This document shows positions 1 through 45,805 of a stretch of DNA of 64,000 bases, one piece after another. Position 1 is the first letter of the stretch. Every line of letters starts with the position of its first letter. Source of the stretch: Alphaproteobacteria bacterium (GTDB lineage: Bacteria > Pseudomonadota > Alphaproteobacteria > UBA6615). A program made the translations under genes and the position numbers. The stretch covers positions 330,978 to 394,977 of the forward strand of contig CBDFKJ010000006.1 of NCBI GenBank assembly GCA_965248805.1. The letters are read 5' to 3'. Under the pieces are notes generated by a model. That model was not told where the DNA came from and searched no databases. It was given only the letters and a program-made list of their open reading frames with translations.

Positions 1-456
1 AAAGGCGACATAGACGAAGCCAGCCCAAGTGGCCACGTAGGTAAAGTCCGAGACCCACAGCCTGTTCGGTGCCGGAGCGTGGAACTGGCGATTGACCTTG
101 TCGAGCGGGCAAGGCGCGGCCTGGTCGCTGACTGTCGTGCGGATCGGCTTGCCGCGGATCACCCCTTGCAAGCCCATCTCCCGCATCAGCCGCTCAACAG
201 TGCAGCGAGCGACATCGAAGCCTTCCCGCTGCAATTGTCGCCACACCTTGCGAACGCCGTAGACACGGAAGTTCTCTTTGAAGACGCGTCGGACCTCGAC
301 CTTGAGAGCCATATCCCGTTTCGCCCGTGCCGACAGCCTGGCCGGATCGCGCCGCCTGGCCACATGGTCGTAGTAGGTCGACGGGGCGATCGGCAGCACC
401 TTGCAGATCGGCTCGACCCCGTGCGCCTCGCGGTGATCGCCGATGAACGCGATCAT
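1..456 (-). CDS. IS3-family transposase OrfB (integrase core), N-terminal part only, truncated by the window edge
   Basis: Own translation of the minus strand from the ATG at 456: [103 protein letters not shown]...[22 protein letters not shown]. It overlaps the OrfA end as in a -1 frameshift arrangement. It is not in the ORF track because it runs off the edge. Confidence 0.8.
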
Positions 457-779
457 GGCTTGAACCGGCGGTCGAGCTCCGCCTGGGCAAAATAGGCGCT
501 CGCCTTGCGCAGGATCTCGTTGACCTGCCGGAGGTCGCGGTTCTCCCGCTCCAGGGCTTTCAGCCGCTCGGCGACCTCGCTGGGGACGCCGGCGCGCACG
601 CCGCTATCGCGCTCGAACCTCTTCACCCACTCATTGAGTGTCTGCGCCGTGCAGCCGATCTTCCCAGCTATCGAGGAAACAGCCGCCCAACGCGAGGCGT
701 GTTCGCCCTCGTGATCCACAACCATCCGCACCGCACGGGCGCGAACCTCAGAAGAAAACCTGTTCCTTGTCTTGCTCAT
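453..779 (-). CDS. IS3-family transposase OrfA (HTH/leucine-zipper part)
   Basis: [20 protein letters not shown]...[36 protein letters not shown] is a typical IS3 OrfA. GGAG lies 8 nt upstream of the ATG at 779. The ORF-track start at 800 is probably too long. Confidence 0.85.
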
Positions 780-9009: not shown

Positions 9010-9868
9010 CTAGTGGATTGATTCCAACGTTTGGAACCCTCGGTTTCGGGCTGCGATGATGTCGTCGGGGTCGGCTTTCGATATGAATGGCTGTGGGTTG
9101 GCCGCATTGTATTCGCGGACGAAGCGGTTGATTGCGGCCTGGAGATCGACGACGGAATGGAAGACGCCGTGCTTGAGCCGCCGCCGGGTGAGTTTTGCGA
9201 AGAAGCCCTCGACGGCATTGAGCCACGAGCAGGAGGTCGGTGTGAAGTGGAAAGTCCAGCGCGGATGGCGGGCGAGCCAGGCGCGGACCTTGTCCTTGTT
9301 GTGCGCCGCGTAGTTGTCGACGATCGCGTGGATGGCCTTGTCCGCCGGCACCGTGCGCTCGATGCGGTTGAGGAAGCGGATGAACTCCTGATGGCGGTGG
9401 CGCTGCATGTTCTGGCCGATCACCGTTCCGTCCAGAACGTTGAGCGCCGCAAACAGCGTGGTCGTGCCGTGCCGTTTGTAGTCATGGGTCATGGTGCCGG
9501 CGCGTCCCTTCTTCATCGGCAGACCGGCGGTCGAGCGCCTGGATCTGTGACTTCTCATCGATCGACAACACCACCGCATGGGCCGGCGGGTCGACATACA
9601 GGCCGACGATATCGGTGAGTTTCTCGGCGAAGGCAGGGTCGGTCGACAGCTTGAAGTTGCGCCAGCGGTGCGGGCTGAGACCGTGAGCCTTCCAGATCGC
9701 CTGCACCGTCGAGGCGGCAATACCGGCCGCCCTGGCCATCGCGCGCAACGTCCAGTGGGTCGCCTCAAACGGCGGCGGTTGCTGCGTCAGGCGCACGATC
9801 TCGGCGACACGATCGAGCGGGACCGGCGCCTTGCCGGTCGCATACCACAGCAAAATACGGAATCCCAA
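9010..9868 (-). CDS. IS630-family DDE transposase in two reading frames (as copy A)
   Basis: The 252-aa DDE-frame ORF is identical to copy A. The N-terminal frame differs at WYATGK versus WCPPGK. Confidence 0.7.
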
Positions 9869-11082: not shown

Positions 11083-11327
11083 GCCAGCGCCGCCTCGTCC
11101 CAGGGATTGGCTTCCTCGGAGTCTGGCAAGCCGTCAAAAGCGATGTCAAGTTCGCGCCGGTCCCATACCTTGCGGGCGTTGATCGGCTTTGGCTTCGGCA
11201 TCCGGCCGTCCTTGACCATCTGATCGAACAGCGATGGCGAAACCCCGACGTAGGCGGACGCCGTCAGACGCGATAGGCCACGCGGCCAGTCCGGCAGATC
11301 GCGCAGGTCGGCGCGCGCGGCGGTCAT
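11079..11327 (-). CDS. Excisionase/AlpA-like small DNA-binding protein
   Basis: 82 aa with LSRLTASAYVGVSPSLFDQMVKDGRMPKPKPINARKVWDRRELDIAF (MerR/AlpA-like HTH). 4-nt overlap with int. Confidence 0.7.
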   Translation of the reverse strand: MTAARADLRDLPDWPRGLSRLTASAYVGVSPSLFDQMVKDGRMPKPKPINARKVWDRRELDIAFDGLPDSEEANPWDEAALA

Positions 11328-11372
11328 CTCGCATCGCGTGGCTCAAACCACCGCGCCTCGGGGCCACATGAA

Positions 11373-11627
11373 TCACCAAGGGAGGGCAAAGCAGTGTTGT
11401 TGCGGTTGGATGCAGAGCCAATACTCGGGGTTTTTGGGCGGTAATACCATGTGGTAGCGACGATCACCCTCCTTCTCCAACGATTGTGGGTGGTTGCATG
11501 TTGCCCAGAACCATCGACGCCCATCGAGGCGCGCAAGCAGTCCGGGTTTTGGCTCACAGTACCGGCACTTGCGGCATGAGACGATCGTCTGCGCCTGGGC
11601 GCGGGTGATGTCGAGGCGCGCGGTCAT
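11373..11627 (-). CDS. Hypothetical Cys-rich small phage protein
   Basis: MTARLDITRAQAQTIVSCRKCRYCEPKPG...WATCNHPQ. Start chosen at the internal ATG to avoid overlap with the upstream gene. Confidence 0.4.
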   Translation of the reverse strand: MTARLDITRAQAQTIVSCRKCRYCEPKPGLLARLDGRRWFWATCNHPQSLEKEGDRRYHMVLPPKNPEYWLCIQPQQHCFALPW

Positions 11628-17016: not shown

Positions 17017-17661
17017 TCACTCCCGCCGGCGCGCCGGCGCAGTAGAGGTCAAGAACCGCATTAGATCGCCATCGGCGAACAATTGCGCAAGTACAGAGGA
17101 CACCCCCGCGTTCATCCGCTCGTTTATCTCGTTGCCGTCGGCGGTAATACTTACCGGTTCTCCTGTTTCGTCATAATAATAGACGCGTACGATCTCATCT
17201 GCTGTAGAGACGCTCCGGGCCTGCGCCTTAATCGAAATAAACACGTTCTCTGTACCCAACCAAAAACCCATCTGTATGTTCCATTGAAACGATCGCAGAG
17301 AGATCACAACTTGTGCATCAACAGGATCATCTTCAGGCAAGAGAGCGAACCCACGAGCCCGGAATCCCTGAACAATCTGCTGTCGAAAATAAGTGATCAA
17401 CTGCCGGGGCGAGATGTTCACGCCCGCTGTGCCCACGCCGGGTTTGCCAACGACTCGCTGCTCTCTGTCGTCGATAACCAACACTGCAAGTCTCACGCCA
17501 TCTCCAAGGTCGTCCTGCACAACCGGATCGGGTACGTCTGCCGTCAATTCAAGCTCGTGGGGCGTCCACCCCCCACACCCTGCCATCCCCAACGCACCGA
17601 CCAGCATCAGGACGAGCAAAACTGCCTCCAATGCGCCGCCCATCCCAGCGTGCCGTCTCAT
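17017..17661 (-). CDS. Lipoprotein (YajG-like?), co-oriented directly downstream of the repressor
   Basis: MRRHAGMGGALEAVLLVLMLVGALGMAGCGG: basic n-region, hydrophobic core, lipobox-like MAGC. AAGGGA lies 5 nt before the ATG at 17661. The body is visibly lower in GC than its neighbours. Confidence 0.65.
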   Translation of the reverse strand: MRRHAGMGGALEAVLLVLMLVGALGMAGCGGWTPHELELTADVPDPVVQDDLGDGVRLAVLVIDDREQRVVGKPGVGTAGVNISPRQLITYFRQQIVQGFRARGFALLPEDDPVDAQVVISLRSFQWNIQMGFWLGTENVFISIKAQARSVSTADEIVRVYYYDETGEPVSITADGNEINERMNAGVSSVLAQLFADGDLMRFLTSTAPARRRE

Positions 17662-17683
17662 TCCATCCCTTTTCGTCACCTGC

Positions 17684-24073: not shown

Positions 24074-24185
24074 TTTGTGGCTTCGGCTCGCGTCGAGTTT
24101 TTTTTCGCTTGCGGGAAACACGGGAAACAGATATTGGGCTGTTTCTCATCAGGTTGGGCGTTGTGTGTTTCATGCCCGTACCAAT

Positions 24186-24219
24186 CCCGCCCGGTTCCCC
24201 TGCCGCGGCGGGTTTTTTT
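24186..24219 (+). terminator. Rho-independent terminator-like hairpin with T7 tract
   Basis: CCCGCC (24186..24191) pairs with GGCGGG (24207..24212), then TTTTTTT (24213..24219). A T8 run at about 24097..24104 also follows the preceding gene. Confidence 0.4.
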
Positions 24220-24396
24220 GTTCCCAACCATGGGAGACGCGACATGAACCGAGCAGCCGTCAAGGTCTTGGTTGGGTTCGCCGCCGGCGTGATCTGTTGC
24301 CAGACGGCGAACGCAGCCATCGAAGCTAGTGCGGGCGGATAGACCACGGTCGGGTACCCCCTGGCCGCGCCGGGGCAGAACCGGCAGCCCGCTCCA

Positions 24397-24753
24397 TCAG
24401 AGCGATCCGTGCTCGCCGATCACTACGCCGAGCTCGGCGGCAAACCACTCGGCCAGCATCGTGCGATGGCACCAGTTCGAGGGGCTGAACGGAGGTTGCT
24501 CCCAGCAGAGCAACACGGGCTCGGCGCCGCCGGCCAGAGCGTGCAGCTCGTCCCACACCGTCTGAGCATCGAGCGGGCCGAGGATGTCGCGGAAGTAGAT
24601 TTCGCGATATTGAGACTCGGGCATGCGCATCATCTCGCGGGTCGGCACGAGCGCCGTATAGGTGCGGTAGCCGGCGGGCGTTCCACGCGGCGCCCAGCGT
24701 GCGATAGAGATCCGGCCGGGGCCGGTGTAGGTCTTGAAGCTGGCGGTCTTCAT
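24397..24753 (-). CDS. DUF488-family protein
   Basis: MKTASFKTYTGPGRISIARWAPRG...PVLLCWEQPPFSPSNWCHRTMLAEWF has the conserved LLC-x-E...CHR pattern. Its ATG shares one base with the upstream stop (TGATG). Confidence 0.7.
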   Translation of the reverse strand: MKTASFKTYTGPGRISIARWAPRGTPAGYRTYTALVPTREMMRMPESQYREIYFRDILGPLDAQTVWDELHALAGGAEPVLLCWEQPPFSPSNWCHRTMLAEWFAAELGVVIGEHGSL

Positions 24754-25904
24754 CAGGCTGCTCCCATGTACACGACTTCACCGAAGGGCGGCTCACTCAC
24801 ATATCCCGGCGCGGTCGTCGTCACCCAAAGGGTAGGATACGCCGGCTCGTCGGGATAGCTGGAGCAGCGCAAGTCGGTCAGATAGACCACACATGCCGGA
24901 TTGACGTCGGCCTCGTCGAGCCACTCGAACGGAGGCCGAAAATTCGTCCCGCCGCCGCCGCGCGGGTGCAGCTCAATCGGCAGGTCATGCGGCGAAAACG
25001 TCTCCGCGTTGCGCAGCCGCGAATCGCAATAGAGCACGTGGATTTCTTCCGGCATGCAGTCTTCGAGGATGCTCGTGAGCTCGGCCGCGAACTGGTTCAT
25101 CTCGGACTGCGAGACGCTGCCGCTGGTGTCGATGGCAACCGCTATCGGCGGCATCTGCTCCGACCGGCACGAGGGCAGGTAGACGCCTTGATGCACAAAG
25201 CGCCGGTTGGGCGGGGTCCAGCGGTATTCCTGCTTCGCGGACATTTCGACGAAGCGGCGGAGTATCTCGCGCCAGTCGGCCTTCGGGCGCAGCACTTCGT
25301 CGACCAGGCGCGCAAGGTCGCCGGGTAGCTTGCCTGCGTTCTTGGCGATGGTTGCGGACTGGGCCACCGCCTGACGCCACTCGGCTTCGGCGGACGCCAG
25401 TTCGGCCGGCGACGGGTTGCCGTTGTCGCCGGGGGCATCCATGACGCCGCCGCAGCGGCCGGGATCGGGGCAGTTGCCGTCCTGTCCGCCACCGCCGCCG
25501 CCGGACTGAGCCGGCGGCAGGCGGTTGTAGATGGCTTCGGCGCTCAAACCCGAATAGTTCGGGTCGAGTAACGCCCCTTCGGGCAACGTAAAGCCGTTGT
25601 CGATCAAGACGGGGTTGATCGCGTAGTCCGCGGCCGTGTTCCACCGTTCGGCATCGCGTTGACCGCGGCGGGTATGGTGATTGCAGGCCGGGTGCATGAC
25701 CTCGTGAGCGAGCACGCCCACGAGTTCGTCCATGCTGAGTCCGTCAACGAACGAAGGGTTGAAGTAAACGTCGCGGCCGTTCGTCGCCATCGTCTCGATG
25801 TTGGGGTTTTCGATCAGGCCCATGCGCAGGGCCAGCGAGCCGAAGAACGGCTGCGATAGGACCAGACGGGTCCGCGCCTTGGTGAGTTTCGTTCTGGTTT
25901 CCAT
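24753..25904 (-). CDS. Putative zinc metallopeptidase (HExxH) fused to a VWA-like domain
   Basis: The N-terminal part has VLAHEVMHPACNHH. The C-terminal part has IAVAIDTSGSVS (DxSxS MIDAS-like) and GGGGTNF. GGAG RBS. Confidence 0.75.
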   Translation of the reverse strand: METRTKLTKARTRLVLSQPFFGSLALRMGLIENPNIETMATNGRDVYFNPSFVDGLSMDELVGVLAHEVMHPACNHHTRRGQRDAERWNTAADYAINPVLIDNGFTLPEGALLDPNYSGLSAEAIYNRLPPAQSGGGGGGQDGNCPDPGRCGGVMDAPGDNGNPSPAELASAEAEWRQAVAQSATIAKNAGKLPGDLARLVDEVLRPKADWREILRRFVEMSAKQEYRWTPPNRRFVHQGVYLPSCRSEQMPPIAVAIDTSGSVSQSEMNQFAAELTSILEDCMPEEIHVLYCDSRLRNAETFSPHDLPIELHPRGGGGTNFRPPFEWLDEADVNPACVVYLTDLRCSSYPDEPAYPTLWVTTTAPGYVSEPPFGEVVYMGAA

Positions 25905-25915
25905 GTCTCGTCTCC

Positions 25916-26779
25916 TTAAGCGACGTAGCCGGACATCGCGCCGAGGATCTGCTCAGCGTCGTTCGCCTGCTGCTCGCGGGCGGCCTCGTCGAAGTCCTTC
26001 GAGTTCGGCCGCAGCACGGACGGATCGTTGCGGCAGAGCTTTGCCGCTACGTCCTGGCGCATCCGCTCAAGCTCCGGGTCGTCCGCGATATTGAGTTTCG
26101 GCAGCAGGTCGACCAGTTCGCGCAAATTGCCGACCAGCGTGTCGTGGAAACGGTTGTCCGTGTCGGACAGCCGCTCGGTCATGTGCTCTACCGACTTGTG
26201 GAGGCGCTTCCAGCACTCGTCGGTCGCATCATGGAGGATGTTGCGGGTCCGGCTCTCGATGTCTGCCTGGATGCGCTGGACCTCGGAGGCGTTGAGACTG
26301 ACCCGGAAATCGGCCTGATCGGGCAGCGGGCTCACTATGGTCTCGAAGGCGAACCGCGAGCGGATCTGGTGGACTTCGGGGTAATCGTTCGGGTCGAACA
26401 TGCCGTTGAGCGCCGCCTTCGCATCGTTCACATACTGGACGTAGTTGCGCTCGAACGCGTCGGCCGCTGCGTCGAACGCGGTCTTGAAGTCGCGCTGCTG
26501 GTCCATGTACTCGAAATACGCCGCCGCCGGCAGGATACGGGCGCCCCAATCTTCCCACGACAGCGTGTGCTCGTAGTGGTGGGTCCGGGCCTGGTTCGCG
26601 ACCTTCGTCACGTCGGCCAGCGCGGCCTTTGCGATCAGGCTCTTGTTCCAGCGGCCGGCGTCGGTGCTCGCGTTGTGGTGATCGAGGACTTCCCGTGTCA
26701 CCTTCTTGTCGAACTTGCGGCCCGACCAGACGTTGATCGCCTGGCGCACCAGCATGGCTTTCTCGGTCAGATTGCTCAT
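25916..26779 (-). CDS. Hypothetical helical protein (287 aa) between the ATPase and the VWA protein
   Basis: No motif recognised with certainty; I vaguely recall a DUF family that accompanies CobS/CobT-like or MoxR/VWA pairs. ATGA overlap with the upstream ATPase gene. Confidence 0.55.
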   Translation of the reverse strand: MSNLTEKAMLVRQAINVWSGRKFDKKVTREVLDHHNASTDAGRWNKSLIAKAALADVTKVANQARTHHYEHTLSWEDWGARILPAAAYFEYMDQQRDFKTAFDAAADAFERNYVQYVNDAKAALNGMFDPNDYPEVHQIRSRFAFETIVSPLPDQADFRVSLNASEVQRIQADIESRTRNILHDATDECWKRLHKSVEHMTERLSDTDNRFHDTLVGNLRELVDLLPKLNIADDPELERMRQDVAAKLCRNDPSVLRPNSKDFDEAAREQQANDAEQILGAMSGYVA

Positions 26780-27786
26780 GACATCACCTCATGATGCTCG
26801 GACACCCACTCGATGTAGGCGCGGGTGTTGGCCACCGCCGGGTCGCGGTCGAGCGCGTCCTTGACCAGCAGCACGCTGAACTCGTCGGGCAACCGGTTCG
26901 CGTAGGTCACCACCCGGTCCATGTTGCCTTCGGTCGCCTTGCGGGCCAGCGCGGTCGAGATCGCATAGAGCGTCGCCGCTTCCTCGGGGATCGCCGCGCT
27001 GTCCGGGCTCATCAGGATCATGTCCGGGCTCTGGATCGAGCGGGCGATCTTGAGGAAGCCCATGAACTCGGCCGCCGCGCCCTCGCCGACAGCGCCGGCG
27101 ATCAGCGGATACTCGATACCGTTGGTGACGGTGCCGGAGCCGACGATGTTGCTCACGAACTCCCACGACCGGGGCGTCGGGAAAGCTTTCTCCGAACGCT
27201 TCGGGTCGAAGTCGTGCAGCAACTCGTCACGGAAGCGCAGGAAGGCGACAACCTCGGTGGCGATGCCGTGCTTGGTCGCCCACTTGGTCCAGTCGTCGAG
27301 GTCGACGCCGAAGTCGAGATGCACGAACCGGTTGGTGAGCGGAGAGGGCATGCGGTGGACGACACCGCGGTCGCTCTCGCGGTTGCCGGCCGCGATGATG
27401 GTCCAGCCGGCGGGCAGCTCGTATTCGCCCAGCTTGCGATCAAGGATCAGTTGATAGCAGGCCGCCTGGGTCAGCTGCGGCGCCGCCGTCAGCTCGTCCA
27501 GGAACAGGATGCCCTTGCCCTCGCGGGGCAGGAACTCGGGCACCGCCCAATGGGCGCGGCCGTCGCCGTTGATGTGCGGCAGGCCGCGCAGATCGACCGG
27601 GTCCAACAGAATCGCCCGGACGTCGCGCAGCTCCAGGCCGTTCTCGTCTGCGATCTGCTTGACGACCGCCGACTTGCCGACGCCGGGAGGCCCCCAGATC
27701 ATGATCGGCTGCTTGATGCCGACCAGGATGCTCAGGGCTTCGGACACCTGCGATGGTTTGAGGGTGTAGTTTGAGGTTATAGTCAT
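26776..27786 (-). CDS. MoxR-like AAA+ ATPase
   Basis: Walker A is IMIWGPPGVGKS and Walker B is ILFLDELT; also IIAAGNRESDRG and PSPLTNRF. AAGGAG lies 7 nt upstream of the ATG at 27786, so the ORF-track start at 27846 is too long. Confidence 0.8.
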   Translation of the reverse strand: MTITSNYTLKPSQVSEALSILVGIKQPIMIWGPPGVGKSAVVKQIADENGLELRDVRAILLDPVDLRGLPHINGDGRAHWAVPEFLPREGKGILFLDELTAAPQLTQAACYQLILDRKLGEYELPAGWTIIAAGNRESDRGVVHRMPSPLTNRFVHLDFGVDLDDWTKWATKHGIATEVVAFLRFRDELLHDFDPKRSEKAFPTPRSWEFVSNIVGSGTVTNGIEYPLIAGAVGEGAAAEFMGFLKIARSIQSPDMILMSPDSAAIPEEAATLYAISTALARKATEGNMDRVVTYANRLPDEFSVLLVKDALDRDPAVANTRAYIEWVSEHHEVMS

Positions 27787-27952
27787 TTTGCTTGCTCCTT
27801 TTCGCAGAGGGGTTGGCAATGAGCCCTGGGCGCCGTCGTCTCCCAAACTTAGGGCGCCCGGGGCTCTACTGTTTTGACAAGTACTATTCTATATAATTAC
27901 TTACAGACGTCAAGTAAAAAGCAATACAAACAACGACTTAAGCTGTTATTAC
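27787..27952. promoter_or_regulatory. AT-rich divergent intergenic region between the antisense operon and the late genes
   Basis: Inverted repeat GAGCCCTGGGCGCC / GGGCGCCCGGGGCTC at 27821..27866. Consensus hexamers TTGACA (27874..27879) and TATAAT (27892..27897) lie on the + strand but are only 12 bp apart. Confidence 0.4.
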
Positions 27953-28276
27953 ATGAACCAGGACACGAGGGAGTCGGCGGCGGCCCGCGGCTACGGCAGG
28001 CGTTGGCGCAAGGCGCGCAAGACGTTCCTCGCCCGCCATTCGCTGTGTGCCATGTGCCAGGCCGAAGGCCGCGTCATCGCAGCGACGCTGGTCGACCACA
28101 TCGTGCCGCATCGAGGCGACCAGGCGCTGTTCTGGGACCGCCGCAACTGGCAGCCGCTGTGCGACAGCCATCACGGATCGGCCAAGCAGCGGCACGAGGC
28201 GCGCGGCTACAGCAATGCCGTAGGGCCGAACGGCTGGCCCCTGGACCCGCTCCACCCCGCCAACAGAAGGGGATAG
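27953..28276 (+). CDS. HNH endonuclease (terminase-associated type)
   Basis: CAMCQAEGR...VDHIVPHRGD...NWQPLCDSHHGSAKQ. Confidence 0.8.
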   Translation: MNQDTRESAAARGYGRRWRKARKTFLARHSLCAMCQAEGRVIAATLVDHIVPHRGDQALFWDRRNWQPLCDSHHGSAKQRHEARGYSNAVGPNGWPLDPLHPANRRG

Positions 28277-28370
28277 GGGGAGTCCAAACTAGAGCCGGTC
28301 GGCGCGTAGACCGGCGTTGGAGGTTTCTCGTCTCGCGAACGAAATTAACTAGGGGGGGGTGCGTTCACTC

Positions 28371-29705
28371 ATGTTCGTCGGTTCGGTGCCGCGCCCGGTG
28401 GTCGATCAGATCCTGCGGACGGTCGATTTTGGGGCCTGGGGCAGCGTCCATGTGTGCTGCTCGGGCTCGTTCCGCGTGGACCGCGCGATCAAGGCCGGTT
28501 ATCCGGCGTGCCGGGTGATCTCGAACGACGTGTCGCTGTTCTCGGTGGCGCTGGGGCACCTGCTGACAGGCCGGCCCGTCGATGTCCGCTTCACCGGCAG
28601 GCTCGCGTTCATCGAGGGACGCATCGGCGGCGCGCCGGCCGAGCGCGTGGCGGCGGTGATGGTCGCCGTGGACATGGCGCGGTACCGCGGCAAGAACGAG
28701 TGGGCGCAAACCCACTTCGCACACTACGAGACGGCGTTTGCGGACTTCCTCGGGCGCGCACTAGAGCGCCTGGACGCGATGCTCGCCGGTCCACGGCCTG
28801 ACGGGTTCGTCGCCGGCGACTTCCGGCAAATGCCGGCGCTGGCGCGCAAGGCCGGCGGCGGTATCGTGGCCTTTCCGCCAACGTACAAGGGCGGCTACGA
28901 GCGGCTGTTTCGCTTCGTCGACGACAACACCGAGTGGCGGCGGCCGGCTTACGAGGTTTGGGACCCGGCGGACCTGGCAACCTGGGTGCGCGGCATTCAC
29001 GACCAGGGTCTGCCGTACTGCGTCTTCTCCGATCACCTGCTCGAAGATGGCGCGTTGTGTCCGGTGACCGGCTACTGCAACGACGGTCGGCGCACGGTCT
29101 ACACATACGCAAGCGCCGGCGGCTCATCGCTGCGGGCAACGCACCACCGCTCGACGCCGTTCCTGTACGAAGCGGTCGACCCTGCGGCACTGACGTCGCA
29201 CACGAAGGTCGACCTTGTTCAGACGGACTCGGCGAAGCTGAACTTTCTGAAAGACCGCTATCTGTCCAAGGGCATCGCCCATGTATCGGGCGGCTTGAAC
29301 TTCCTCGTCTACCTCGACGAGAAGCTGGCGGGAGCTTTCATCTACCAGCGCTCGAAGTTCGGGGACACGAGCGCGATCTATCTGTTGAGCGACTTCGCCA
29401 TCTGCCGACACCGCAGGATGTCGAAACTGATCGCGCTGCTCGCTACCAGTCACGTGCCGGTGTCGATCTTCGAGCGGCGCGAGCTGGTCCGGGTCGCCCG
29501 GCTCTACACCACGGCGTTCACCGACAAGCCGGTGTCGATGAAGTACCGCGGCGTCTTCACGCTCGCGGCCCGCGGAGAGGGGATGCTGAACTATGAAAGC
29601 GAAGTCAGACGCCGGTCTCCACAAGCGCTCTACGAAGGCTGGTATCGGCGCTGGGCTCAAGACGCGGGCCGTCACCAAGGAACTGCGCGGGCTGAAGCTG
29701 CTTGA
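28371..29705 (+). CDS. Dam-like N6-adenine methyltransferase-like protein with an unknown C-terminal domain of roughly 160-170 aa
   Basis: VHVCCSGSFRVDRAI (FxGxG-like) precedes IVAFPPTYKGGYERLF (DPPY-like motif IV). The C-terminal part (LNFLVYLDEKLAGAFIYQRS...) is unrecognised. Confidence 0.55.
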   Translation: MFVGSVPRPVVDQILRTVDFGAWGSVHVCCSGSFRVDRAIKAGYPACRVISNDVSLFSVALGHLLTGRPVDVRFTGRLAFIEGRIGGAPAERVAAVMVAVDMARYRGKNEWAQTHFAHYETAFADFLGRALERLDAMLAGPRPDGFVAGDFRQMPALARKAGGGIVAFPPTYKGGYERLFRFVDDNTEWRRPAYEVWDPADLATWVRGIHDQGLPYCVFSDHLLEDGALCPVTGYCNDGRRTVYTYASAGGSSLRATHHRSTPFLYEAVDPAALTSHTKVDLVQTDSAKLNFLKDRYLSKGIAHVSGGLNFLVYLDEKLAGAFIYQRSKFGDTSAIYLLSDFAICRHRRMSKLIALLATSHVPVSIFERRELVRVARLYTTAFTDKPVSMKYRGVFTLAARGEGMLNYESEVRRRSPQALYEGWYRRWAQDAGRHQGTARAEAA

Positions 29706-30342
29706 GAAGAACGCCCGCTACATGCAGCCGGCGCAGTTCGAGCGTCTGGTGGACAATCTTCGTAAGGACGGCTGCCTGACCACGGCGCCGCTGATCCACG
29801 AAGACACGGTGCTGAGCGGCAACCACCGGGTTCAGGCGGCGATCGCGGCCGGCATCGAGGTTGCGGACTGCATCGAGATCATCTCGCCGCTCACGGCCGA
29901 GCAGCGGGTTGCGATCCAGCTCTCGCACAACGCCATCGAAGGTGAGGACGATCCCAACACGCTGCGCGAGCTGTATGACGCGCTTGGCTTCGATGCCAAG
30001 ACCTACTCCGGGTTGACCGACGACATGTTCGACAAGGCGTCGCCGGTGGATATCGCGAGCCTCGCGGTCGGAGCGCCGGAGTATCACGAGATGTCCGTGC
30101 AGTTCCTGCCGGCCGAGGCGGAACAGTTCGAAGCGGCGCTGGCCCGCATCGAGCGGAAGTCCAACCGCGCCGGCACCGTGCACGTCGCGCGTTTCGAGGA
30201 CTTCGATGTGATCTTCGATGCCGTGATCGCGGTCAAGGAACGGGAGGACGTGCACAACTCGGCGATCGCGCTGCGGCGCATGGCGGAGCTGGCGCTGGAG
30301 CGTCTTGAGACGCTCGCGGAGACCGACGGTGCGCGGACGTAA
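29593..30342 (+). CDS. ParB/Srx N-terminal-domain protein
   Basis: LKLLEKNARYMQPAQFERLVDNLRKDG...VLSGNHRVQAAIAAG (GxxR motif). The only upstream in-frame start gives a 113-nt overlap with the preceding gene. Confidence 0.65.
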   Translation: MKAKSDAGLHKRSTKAGIGAGLKTRAVTKELRGLKLLEKNARYMQPAQFERLVDNLRKDGCLTTAPLIHEDTVLSGNHRVQAAIAAGIEVADCIEIISPLTAEQRVAIQLSHNAIEGEDDPNTLRELYDALGFDAKTYSGLTDDMFDKASPVDIASLAVGAPEYHEMSVQFLPAEAEQFEAALARIERKSNRAGTVHVARFEDFDVIFDAVIAVKEREDVHNSAIALRRMAELALERLETLAETDGART

Positions 30343-44467: not shown

Positions 44468-45805
44468 ATGCCGGTTCGCCGTCTACGTCTGGCCGCTACC
44501 TTCACCGGCGGCCGACTCAAAGGCAGCGCACCGCTTCGGCTTCGGCGCCGCCTGCCTCTGGCCGCTACCTTCAGAGGCGCGGCGCTGGCAGGCAGTGCCC
44601 CGCTTCGGCTGCGGCGCCGTCTACGTCTGGCCGCTACCTTCAAAGGCGGCCGACTCAGAGGCAGCGCACCGCTGCGGCTGCGATTGCCTCTCGCCGCTAC
44701 CTTCACCGGCGCGGCGCTGGCAGGCAGTGCCCCGCTTCGGCTGCGGCGCCGTCTACGTCTCGCCGCCACCTTCAGAGGCGCGGCGCTGGCAGGCAGAGCC
44801 CCGCTGCGGCTGCGGCGCCGCCTGCCTCTGGCCGCTACCTTCAGAGGCGCGGTACTGGCCGGCAGAGCCCCGCTTCGGCTTCGGCGCCGTCTACGTCTGG
44901 CCGCTATCTTCAAAGGCGGTCGGCTCAGAGGCAGAGCCCCGCTGCGGCTGCGATTGCGTCTTGCAGCTACCTTCACCGACGCGGCGCTGGCAGGCAGTGC
45001 CCCGCTTCGGCTGCGGCGCCGTCTACGTCTCGCCGCCACCTTCAGAGGCGCGGCGCTGGCAGGCAGAGCCCCGCTGCGGCTGCGGCGCCGCCTGCCTCTG
45101 GCCGCTACCTTCAGAGGCGCGGTACTGGCCGGCAGAGCCCCGCTTCGGCTTCGGCGCCGTCTACGTCTGGCCGCTATCTTCAAAGGCGGTCGGCTCAGAG
45201 GCAGAGCCCCGCTGCGGCTGCGATTGCGTCTTGCAGCTACCTTCACCGACGCCGCGCTGACCGGCAGCGCCCCGCTGCGGCTGCGACTGCGTCTCGCCGC
45301 TACCTTCACCGGCGCCGCGCTGACCGGTAGCGCCCCGCTTCAGCTGCTCCTGAAGCACCGTTACGACCGCGCCTTGCGCGCCAGCTCGCCGCTCGACCGG
45401 GTGCTCACCGCGCTGGAGATCCGCCATCCCGCGATCGTCGAGCCGGTGCGTGTGGTCAACGACGCCGACGATCACACCATCGAGGGCGAACGCTACGTGC
45501 GCCTGCGCTTCGGCGCCCGGTTCGCCGACGACGTCGAGGGCCGGGAACCGCGGGCTGAGCTGGTGATCGACAATGTCGGGCGCGAGCTGACGCAATGGAT
45601 CGAGGCGGCGGGCGGCGGGGTCGGCGCCACCGTGCGCGTGATGCAGGTGGTCGACGACATGCCGGAATGGGAGATGACCATGGACGTCGCCCATATCCGC
45701 CTCGATCAGGAACGCGTGACCGCCCGGCTCGGCTTCGACCCGCTGCTCGGCCGCGCCGCCGTGACACTGCGCCACGATCCGCAAACCAGCCCAGGGCTGT
45801 TCTGA
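44468..45805 (+). CDS. DUF1833-like minor tail protein (gpL position) with a repeat-encoded N-terminal extension; true start uncertain
   Basis: The C-terminal ~150 aa (...LTALEIRHPAIVEPVRVVNDADDHTIEGERYVRLRFGARFADDVEGREPRAELVIDNVGRELTQWIEAA...) looks DUF1833-like. The N-terminal ~290 aa are (LRLAATFxGxxLxGxAPLRLR[RR])x13. Confidence 0.55.
   Translation: MPVRRLRLAATFTGGRLKGSAPLRLRRRLPLAATFRGAALAGSAPLRLRRRLRLAATFKGGRLRGSAPLRLRLPLAATFTGAALAGSAPLRLRRRLRLAATFRGAALAGRAPLRLRRRLPLAATFRGAVLAGRAPLRLRRRLRLAAIFKGGRLRGRAPLRLRLRLAATFTDAALAGSAPLRLRRRLRLAATFRGAALAGRAPLRLRRRLPLAATFRGAVLAGRAPLRLRRRLRLAAIFKGGRLRGRAPLRLRLRLAATFTDAALTGSAPLRLRLRLAATFTGAALTGSAPLQLLLKHRYDRALRASSPLDRVLTALEIRHPAIVEPVRVVNDADDHTIEGERYVRLRFGARFADDVEGREPRAELVIDNVGRELTQWIEAAGGGVGATVRVMQVVDDMPEWEMTMDVAHIRLDQERVTARLGFDPLLGRAAVTLRHDPQTSPGLF
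44483..45349 (+). repeat. Array of 13 tandem repeats of 69 or 63 bp, with a 270-bp higher-order duplication
   Basis: Unit starts: 44483, 44552, 44621, 44684, 44753, 44822, 44891, 44954, 45023, 45092, 45161, 45224, 45287. Segment 44684..44953 nearly equals 44954..45223. Confidence 0.95.

Follow-up and report, generated by a model that had tools for sequence, protein, structure and literature searches.

Results

Four coupled antisense genes in a lambdoid prophage

We analysed a 64,000-nt stretch of an Alphaproteobacteria bacterium genome of the GTDB lineage UBA6615 (GCA_965248805.1, contig CBDFKJ010000006.1, positions 330,978 to 394,977 of the forward strand), hereafter the window. Inside a prophage in this window lies a leftward block of four minus-strand open reading frames (ORFs), which encode an AAA+ ATPase (gene 1), a DUF3150-family protein (gene 2), a zincin fused to a VWA domain (gene 3) and a DUF488-like protein (gene 4). 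Genes 1, 2 and 3 are referred to as the triad, and genes 1 and 3 as the core pair. The junctions are tight: genes 1 and 2 share an ATGA overlap, genes 2 and 3 are joined by TAAGGAGACGAGACATG, an 11-nt gap with GGAG inside, and genes 3 and 4 share a CTGATG overlap. For gene 1, the ATG at 27786 is a more likely start than that of a longer TTG ORF reaching 27846, because AAGGAG stands just 5′ of this ATG and the start positions in the relatives match it. The features are collected in Table 1.

The surrounding element is a genuine lambdoid prophage. Its gene set includes an integrase, RecT, an S24-type CI-like repressor, DUF1376, DUF6362, HNH, a Dam-like/GNAT fusion, a ParB-like protein, TerS, TerL and the portal protein. 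The block sits antisense between the replication and packaging genes, and the synteny is the same in the related loci L004-L006 (about 91% identity to the window block) and L106 (47-66%). Between the VWA and DUF488-like genes, L004-L006 (91% identity, about 11150-11430) carry an additional gene of about 95 codons with an acidic-tailed product, which the window lacks. The 4-kb block gave no match to isolated phages by blastn, and an Rfam search of the block returned nothing.

An initial annotation, made from the window sequence alone, had described the four ORFs, their coordinates, their coupled junctions and the motifs GPPGVGKS, ILFLDE, HEVMH, DTSGS and LLC..CHR, and had placed the block inside a prophage. 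We found all of these as described. Its reading of the block as an undescribed four-gene system fared differently, as the following sections show.

Table 1 Features of the four-gene block and its flanks (window positions)
Feature	Position	Strand	Evidence
Sigma-70-like promoter, leftward unit	27886..27913	-	TTGACG-16-TAGAAT, 10/12 matches
GC-rich 5′-UTR hairpin, between promoter and Shine-Dalgarno	27822..27868	-	minimum free energy -37.5 kcal/mol, z = -2.77
Gene 1: AAA+ ATPase, AAA_5/MoxR clade, 336 aa, N4 gp24 homologue	26776..27786	-	phrog_1297 1e-102, full length
Gene 2: DUF3150-family protein, 287 aa, third triad subunit	25916..26779	-	homologues with PF11348; structure match
Gene 3: HExxHxxxxH zincin fused to VWA/MIDAS domain, 383 aa, N4 gp25 homologue	24753..25904	-	DUF2201_N 4e-62, DUF2201 6.5e-31
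Gene 4: DUF488-like (DUF488-N3a-like) protein, 118 aa	24397..24753	-	homologues with PF22751/PF04343; Pfam sub-threshold
Two terminator-like hairpins with T-runs	24082-24097, 24199-24212	+	end rightward early operon (DUF6362 gene) converging on block
HNH endonuclease, first gene of divergent rightward unit	27953..28276	+	Pfam HNH 3.7e-4, 21.0 bits, marginally below 21.4 cut-off
DAM-like-phage1 + GNAT-phage-like fusion	28359..29705	+	PF22555 9e-43, PF22559 1e-38
ParB-like protein, upstream of small terminase gene	29593..30342	+	GNHR motif in translation; no Pfam match at 1e-3

Genes 1 and 3 are homologues of N4 gp24 and gp25

Using tblastn, we matched the gene 1 product to N4 gp24 at E 5e-48. 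The motifs include Walker A GPPGVGKS and Walker B ILFLDE; both Walker motifs, the sensor-1 N (of AAGN) and an Arg are conserved over 12 distant homologues. Midasin was the top sequence match in the PDB. Against Pfam, the protein scored just above the cut-offs of AAA (27.2 bits; cut-off 21.2) and AAA_5 (25.5 bits; cut-off 22) and fell under those of the MoxR-proper families AAA_3 (18.1 bits; cut-off 27) and bpMoxR (18.6 bits; cut-off 27). Because the first two pass and the last two do not, the profile scores suggest AAA_5/MoxR-clade ATPase as the best name.

The gene 3 product matched phrog_1314 at 1e-103 and N4 gp25 at E 2e-37. The HEVMH and DTSGS motifs are both present. Among 11 divergent homologues, the MIDAS residues (metal-ion-dependent adhesion site; D259/S261/S263), the GGGT motif (T320) and D344 are invariant. 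The zincin H67-E68-x-x-H71 is present in 10 of the 11 and H76 is invariant, which predicts a metallopeptidase; the domain is weakly similar to M48 and minigluzincins. In the VWA protein of locus L103 (L103-L105 10933-12198), CIQTLR replaces AHEVMH and the MIDAS is intact. Sequence searches of the PDB with single proteins and profiles for DUF3150, DUF2201 and the DUF488-like protein gave nothing beyond weak M48, minigluzincin and integrin hints.

We also noticed that phrog_1314 and many RefSeq phage records label the zincin-VWA family 'HNH endonuclease', N4 gp25 (L110 6165-7307) included. No HNH domain is detectable in this family, which makes the label look like an annotation error passed from record to record.

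The N4 pair (Schitoviridae) has the same domain make-up, gene order, strand and PHROG families as the window pair. N4-like phages are strictly lytic and carry the pair as co-oriented middle genes, whereas the window copy belongs to a temperate phage, is antisense and has a promoter of its own. Unlike the window, N4-like phages have neither a DUF3150 gene, as judged by a hidden Markov model (HMM) search, nor a DUF488-like gene.

Gene 2 belongs to the DUF3150 family and is accessory

The gene 2 product itself had no direct Pfam or PHROG match. Its homologues at 42-60% identity carry PF11348 (DUF3150), and its MinM2 homologue is annotated as DUF3150. The AF2 model (pLDDT 93) shows a mixed alpha/beta plus helical fold. 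Its best BFVD match was a 'DUF3150 domain-containing protein' (E 6e-21, TM 0.85), and the BFVD matches were exclusively uncharacterised phage DUF3150 relatives. Foldseek against the PDB gave nothing significant (best E 0.14). The description of this protein as unknown and helical has to be replaced accordingly.

Performing searches with the DUF3150 HMM, we found no copy in N4, CRP-7, phiFa, SBP1 or the Desulfobacterota loci described below. For this reason DUF3150 is, by profile search, an accessory third subunit and not a universal one.

The module crosses lytic phages, temperate phages and plasmids

Isolated-phage records matching the ATPase numbered 841 and those matching the zincin-VWA protein 663, with parallel host genus distributions; DUF3150 was present in three such records only. 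The tblastn matches include N4-like phages, Bacillus phage G, Thermus phage phiFa, roseophage CRP-7 and jumbo Pseudomonas phages. In the window and in every locus examined, the AAA gene is found close to the VWA gene and shares its strand. In N4, SBP1, CRP-7 and phiFa, the pair is co-oriented with genes for helicase, DNA polymerase, MazG, RNase H and dCTP deaminase. The strictly lytic N4-like phages have 14 core genes; gp24 and gp25 are among these, and in N4 both belong to the middle genes (PMC4193335, PMC10783043). Group 2.2 jumbo phages encode a MoxR AAA+ protein together with a vWA protein bearing an N-terminal metallopeptidase (Iyer et al. 2021, Viruses 13:63, PMC7824862), the same architecture as in the window; that account makes no mention of DUF3150 or of plasmid or temperate-phage copies. 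The core pair is, in short, no undescribed system.

We then scanned IMG/VR with DUF3150 as the seed and took the best 80 of 190 contigs. AAA, DUF3150 and VWA genes stood all on one strand in 63 of these 80, the rest being mostly cut by contig ends, and occurred in two gene orders. Within 5 kb of the triad, 72% of the ORFs were co-oriented with it. The recurrent neighbours were a Hjc-like resolvase, Toprim/DnaB primase-helicase, ERF, a family-A polymerase (PolA), ribonucleotide reductase (RNR), DUF3310, DUF6378 and integrase; no structural genes were among them in these best 80 of 190 contigs. Locus L102, for example, has the order Rad52-PDDEXK-AAA-DUF3150-VWA, with Pol III alpha and primase after it.

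The triad was also found in 62 plasmid records, mostly from Burkholderiales and many of them conjugative. On the Burkholderiales MOBH/MPF_T/MPF_F plasmids, the same three families stand in the same order as in the window, at 32-42% identity, inside a long operon and between the N6-methylase/PRTRC cassette and genes of the type IV secretion system (T4SS); unlike the window, these plasmids have no DUF488-like gene. In pBcn842-1 (L156 19647-35075), the triad lies within one long operon between an N6-methylase/PRTRC (ParB-related/ThiF-related) cassette and VirB-type T4SS genes, and on a Simplicispira plasmid it adjoins a C5-methyltransferase gene. A Lar restriction-alleviation gene was seen close to the triad on pBcn842-1.

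In Desulfobacterota chromosomes (L007-L018, e.g. L014 8967-11752), the AAA and zincin-VWA genes are always followed by a conserved gene for a protein of about 155 aa, which had no Pfam match, and the flanks vary. Identity to the window is 52-57% for the ATPase and 37-49% for the zincin-VWA protein. We considered a tie of this pair to PKS/PUFA-synthase-like (polyketide/polyunsaturated fatty acid synthase-like) genes and rejected it; it was seen at one locus and the neighbourhood was not conserved.

In summary, across the gene neighbourhoods the two core genes stay constant and the third partner varies with the lineage. As far as genome comparison goes, the module is carried by strictly lytic, jumbo and temperate phages and by conjugative plasmids, normally within replication/recombination (early-middle) blocks. 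The idea that it might always stand antisense does not hold across elements, as it is elsewhere mostly co-oriented with replication and recombination genes.

The DUF488-like gene belongs to other partners

The gene 4 product scored 18.9 bits against Pfam DUF488 (PF04343) and DUF488-N3a (PF22751), below both cut-offs (22.2 and 27). It shares with these families the overall length and the signature, here LLCWE..CHR. Its homologues range from 55 to 90% identity, and several at 55-77% carry precomputed PF04343/PF22751 assignments. Among the homologues LLCxE...CHR is invariant, the full list of invariant residues being T3, G11, G13, R14, C83, E85 and C95-H96-R97. The structure model (pLDDT 91) found no significant match in the PDB by Foldseek (best E 0.6). 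A Rossmannoid/Cys-phosphatase-like likeness appeared in weak Foldseek matches and was not relied on. Many of the homologues end in QLF, QLGLPW, QLPL or QLGLFG, tails that resemble beta-clamp-binding motifs; the window protein has no such tail.

Using the DUF488-like gene as the seed, we surveyed IMG/VR again and obtained 39 viral contigs. A Dam-like/GNAT gene was present in 28 and a ParB-like gene in 27 of them. The triad was absent from all 39, and, conversely, none of the 80 triad contigs carried a DUF488-like gene. Usually under 100 nt separate the start of the DUF488-like gene from these neighbours, which run on the other strand, and the group is placed just upstream of the terminase genes (loci L117-L152); in two loci the DUF488-like gene is co-oriented with and adjacent to them. 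The Dam-like/GNAT gene adjoins the DUF488-like gene and diverges from it in the 28 contigs and likewise in L106 and L111-L114. Phages without the triad keep the two genes divergent, sometimes with RadC, DUF932, DUF6011 and ParB genes, and one chromosomal DUF488-like homologue adjoins an MmeI-type restriction-modification gene. Triad and DUF488-like gene stand together only in the window's clade (L004-L006, L106).

The four genes are hence not one system, contrary to the initial annotation. Judged from neighbourhoods, the DUF488-like gene appears co-transcribed with the triad here and evolutionarily tied to the Dam-like/GNAT and ParB-like genes instead. Its subgroup is phage-borne and linked to these genes, and the DUF488-like, Dam-like/GNAT and ParB-like proteins may form an undescribed phage DNA-modification trio.

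The block has a promoter-like site of its own

Searching the region from 23.4 to 28.5 kb, we found TTGACG-16-TAGAAT as the sole sigma-70-like site. It lies in the AT-rich divergent intergenic region that the block has in common with the HNH gene, and its -35 and -10 hexamers are kept in L004, L005 and L106. The GC-rich hairpin in the 5′-untranslated region (5′-UTR) is conserved as well: 2 of its 10 consensus pairs show compensatory double changes in the relatives, and it may act in mRNA stability or attenuation or as an operator. The comparisons of position and promoter support the view that, in the window's phage clade, the block is transcribed antisense as a separate unit, from a conserved promoter-like site of its own. 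The previous view of the block as an autonomous unit, antisense to both flanks and with an AT-rich upstream region of its own, agrees with this.

The block had also been said to face a terminator-rich gap at 24074..24396. The two hairpins in this gap are real. They stand on the plus strand and therefore terminate the rightward early operon, and a search for a minus-strand terminator 3′ of gene 4 did not find one. A possible 32-aa hydrophobic ORF (24244-24342, plus strand; MNRAAVKVLVGFAAGVICC...) with a GGGAGA Shine-Dalgarno sequence lies in the interval that separates the plus-strand terminators from the DUF488-like gene at its 3′ end. We sought its counterpart in the relatives and found none.

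Other features of the window

At 17017-17679 on the minus strand, a gene of the Lipoprotein_16 family stands directly downstream of the CI-like repressor gene and on the same strand. As a candidate for a lysogeny-expressed moron, this gene is more typical than the four-gene block. An ALIL pseudoknot, an IS3-family frameshift element, was detected at 382-498 (minus strand; 118.6 bits), and a repeat with 100% identity over at least 300 nt occurs at 1140-1486 and 9010-9356, 7870 nt apart. The second repeat copy ends about 650 nt 5′ of the prophage integrase gene. The pseudoknot and the repeat pair probably represent two copies of one insertion sequence. In the late region, the ORF 44468-45805 contains 13 tandem copies of a 63/69-nt unit (44477-45345, plus strand), and its product is probably a repetitive tail-fibre-like or collagen-like protein.

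Discussion

The above observations bear on what the block is. With a probability of roughly one half, we propose that it consists of two independent cargo modules within one leftward transcription unit, genes 1-3 being a temperate copy of the N4 gp24/gp25-type module with DUF3150. The triad would most likely be a MoxR/VWA-type ATP-driven remodeller-protease that serves the element during establishment or replication. By analogy with CbbQ-CbbO, NorQ-NorD, RavA-ViaA and Rea1/Midasin, the AAA+ protein would form a hexamer, and this motor would dock on its VWA partner. The MIDAS site would take hold of a client protein by an acidic residue, ATP hydrolysis would pull on or remodel this client, and the fused zincin (HExxHxxxxH) would cut it, with DUF3150 as a client-selecting adaptor or co-substrate. 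All these cellular systems have in common with the window an AAA_5-type motor and a MIDAS-bearing VWA adaptor. They differ from it in having no fused zincin and in having known metabolic or ribosomal clients, and the ATPase likeness is confined to the AAA core.

The weakest steps of the proposal concern the client and the purpose. The client may be a host or DNA-bound protein that hinders the establishment or replication of the incoming element, and the module may serve host takeover or anti-restriction, not the protection of the lysogen. We favour such a client because the carriers share only the need to establish and replicate incoming DNA, and because the module sits among replication, recombination, methylase and restriction-alleviation genes. 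Gene 4 would be a small enzyme-like protein whose partner is the Dam-like/GNAT and ParB-like DNA-modification module across the divergent promoter, the triad having been inserted between the DUF488-like and Dam-like/GNAT genes in the window's clade. A bolder version would make the triad a universal 'entry tool' of mobile DNA, an ATP-driven extractor-protease that strips and cleaves a host DNA-targeting immune or nucleoid protein on the incoming DNA, and, separately, would make the DUF488-like, Dam-like/GNAT and ParB-like proteins an undescribed phage DNA-hypermodification pathway. We regard this version as doubtful.

The published proposal for the jumbo-phage pair of group 2.2 favours virion assembly (PMC7824862), with the MoxR-VWA pair as a chaperone that folds or assembles structural proteins and the zincin as the protease that trims them. 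It draws on the analogy with p618/p892 of ATV (Acidianus two-tailed virus) in tail development, and the halovirus and ATV precedents speak for it. Roseophage RPP1 has four virion-protein genes near its gp24/25 homologues (PMC4193335), and the block borders the packaging module in the window's clade. Set against this, conjugative plasmids make no virions and yet carry the triad, and the pair occurs in Desulfobacterota chromosomes. The N4 genes are middle and not late, the recurrent neighbours in the 80 viral contigs belong to replication and recombination and are not structural, and the window block is antisense to the late operon. We consider a virion-assembly role unlikely. Enzyme-chaperone work, such as iron insertion by NorQD and Rubisco reactivation by CbbQO, is the best-established role of cellular MoxR-VWA pairs, and a cofactor-insertion or enzyme-reactivation chaperone would fit it, with a nucleotide-metabolism or DNA-modification enzyme as the candidate client. 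The chromosomal surroundings of the cellular homologues are ordinary, with a PKS-like synthase next to them in one case, the MIDAS is invariant while the zincin can be lost, and RNR, MazG and dCTP deaminase genes are sometimes nearby. However, N4-like phages, temperate phages and plasmids have no single candidate client enzyme in common, the Desulfobacterota loci do not retain the PKS neighbourhood, and chaperones of this kind seldom have a conserved protease domain. This reading also seems improbable to us.

A nucleoside triphosphate-dependent defence or superinfection-exclusion system, expressed from the prophage in the lysogen, would suit a block that lies antisense between the early and late operons, has a conserved sigma-70-like promoter of its own and keeps its synteny down to 47-66% identity (L106). 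MoxR-vWA ternary conflict systems do exist (Kaur et al. 2020, eLife, PMC7159879) and, like the window, they combine a MoxR-like ATPase and a vWA protein in one operon. Their third component is a beta-propeller/VMAP protein or an effector, whereas the third gene in the window is DUF3150 and the block has no beta-propeller/VMAP or effector gene. Moreover, the window module is carried by invading elements and not by defence islands of multicellular bacteria. None of the four proteins matched a defence model in PADLOC-DB v2 or NCBIfam; there were only P-loop-level matches, E 2e-4 or worse and far under the cut-offs, and bpMoxR was below its cut-off as well. In this respect the initial annotation, which had taken the block as a candidate for an undescribed system, is supported. 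The pair is core to strictly lytic phages and sits within replication modules and plasmid transfer regions, and the four genes do not vary together as a single unit. The triad is probably not a lysogen defence system, and we rate that explanation as very unlikely. It had been stated in advance that finding the genes as a conserved, essential part of the replication module of virulent relatives would speak against a lysogen role; of this, the conservation in virulent relatives and the replication setting were largely found.

Several points weigh against the remodeller-protease proposal itself. Besides the virion-assembly proposal and the RPP1 gene order already mentioned, the antisense position to both flanks and the conserved sigma-70-like promoter give the block the look of a lysogeny-expressed moron. 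Proteolysis is dispensable in at least one lineage, because L103 has lost HExxH and kept the MIDAS. The close homologues in Desulfobacterota chromosomes have a different third gene, and for this reason the AAA-VWA pair would be a generic chaperone module whose client may differ between lineages. In the literature we found no experiments on any member of the module, as the initial annotation had stated for function, and no documentation of gp24/gp25 essentiality. Literature searches on DUF2201, DUF3150, DUF488, cobS/SXT, and anti-defence, leading regions and VWA proteins returned no functional data; the 'DUF488' matches in an SGNH review proved to be DUF4886. A CobS-like/DUF3150/CobT-like set is presumably present in SXT/IncC elements; it has a passing preprint remark only and was not relied on. 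The neighbourhood data, unlike the virion-assembly proposal of Iyer et al., point to replication/recombination blocks.

The description of the locus was accurate, and its reading as an undescribed four-gene system was not. Relative to the literature searched, two aspects appear to be new at the level of gene content, namely that the DUF3150 triad spans phages and conjugative plasmids and that the DUF488-like gene is linked to Dam-like/GNAT and ParB-like genes. For over ten years, the N4 genes gp24 and gp25 have stood in lists of core genes without a known function, and the same module crosses the boundaries between lytic phage, temperate phage and conjugative plasmid, often with DUF3150. This spread narrows the function to a need of every invading DNA, and it speaks against a role confined to the virion or to lysogen defence. 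The linkage of the DUF488-like gene to Dam-like/GNAT and ParB-like genes gives this orphan family its first functional context. As a small unit that has a promoter of its own, the prophage copy should lend itself to deletion and so offers a convenient genetic handle. If the client is indeed a host immune protein, the module would represent a new mechanistic class of anti-defence machine.

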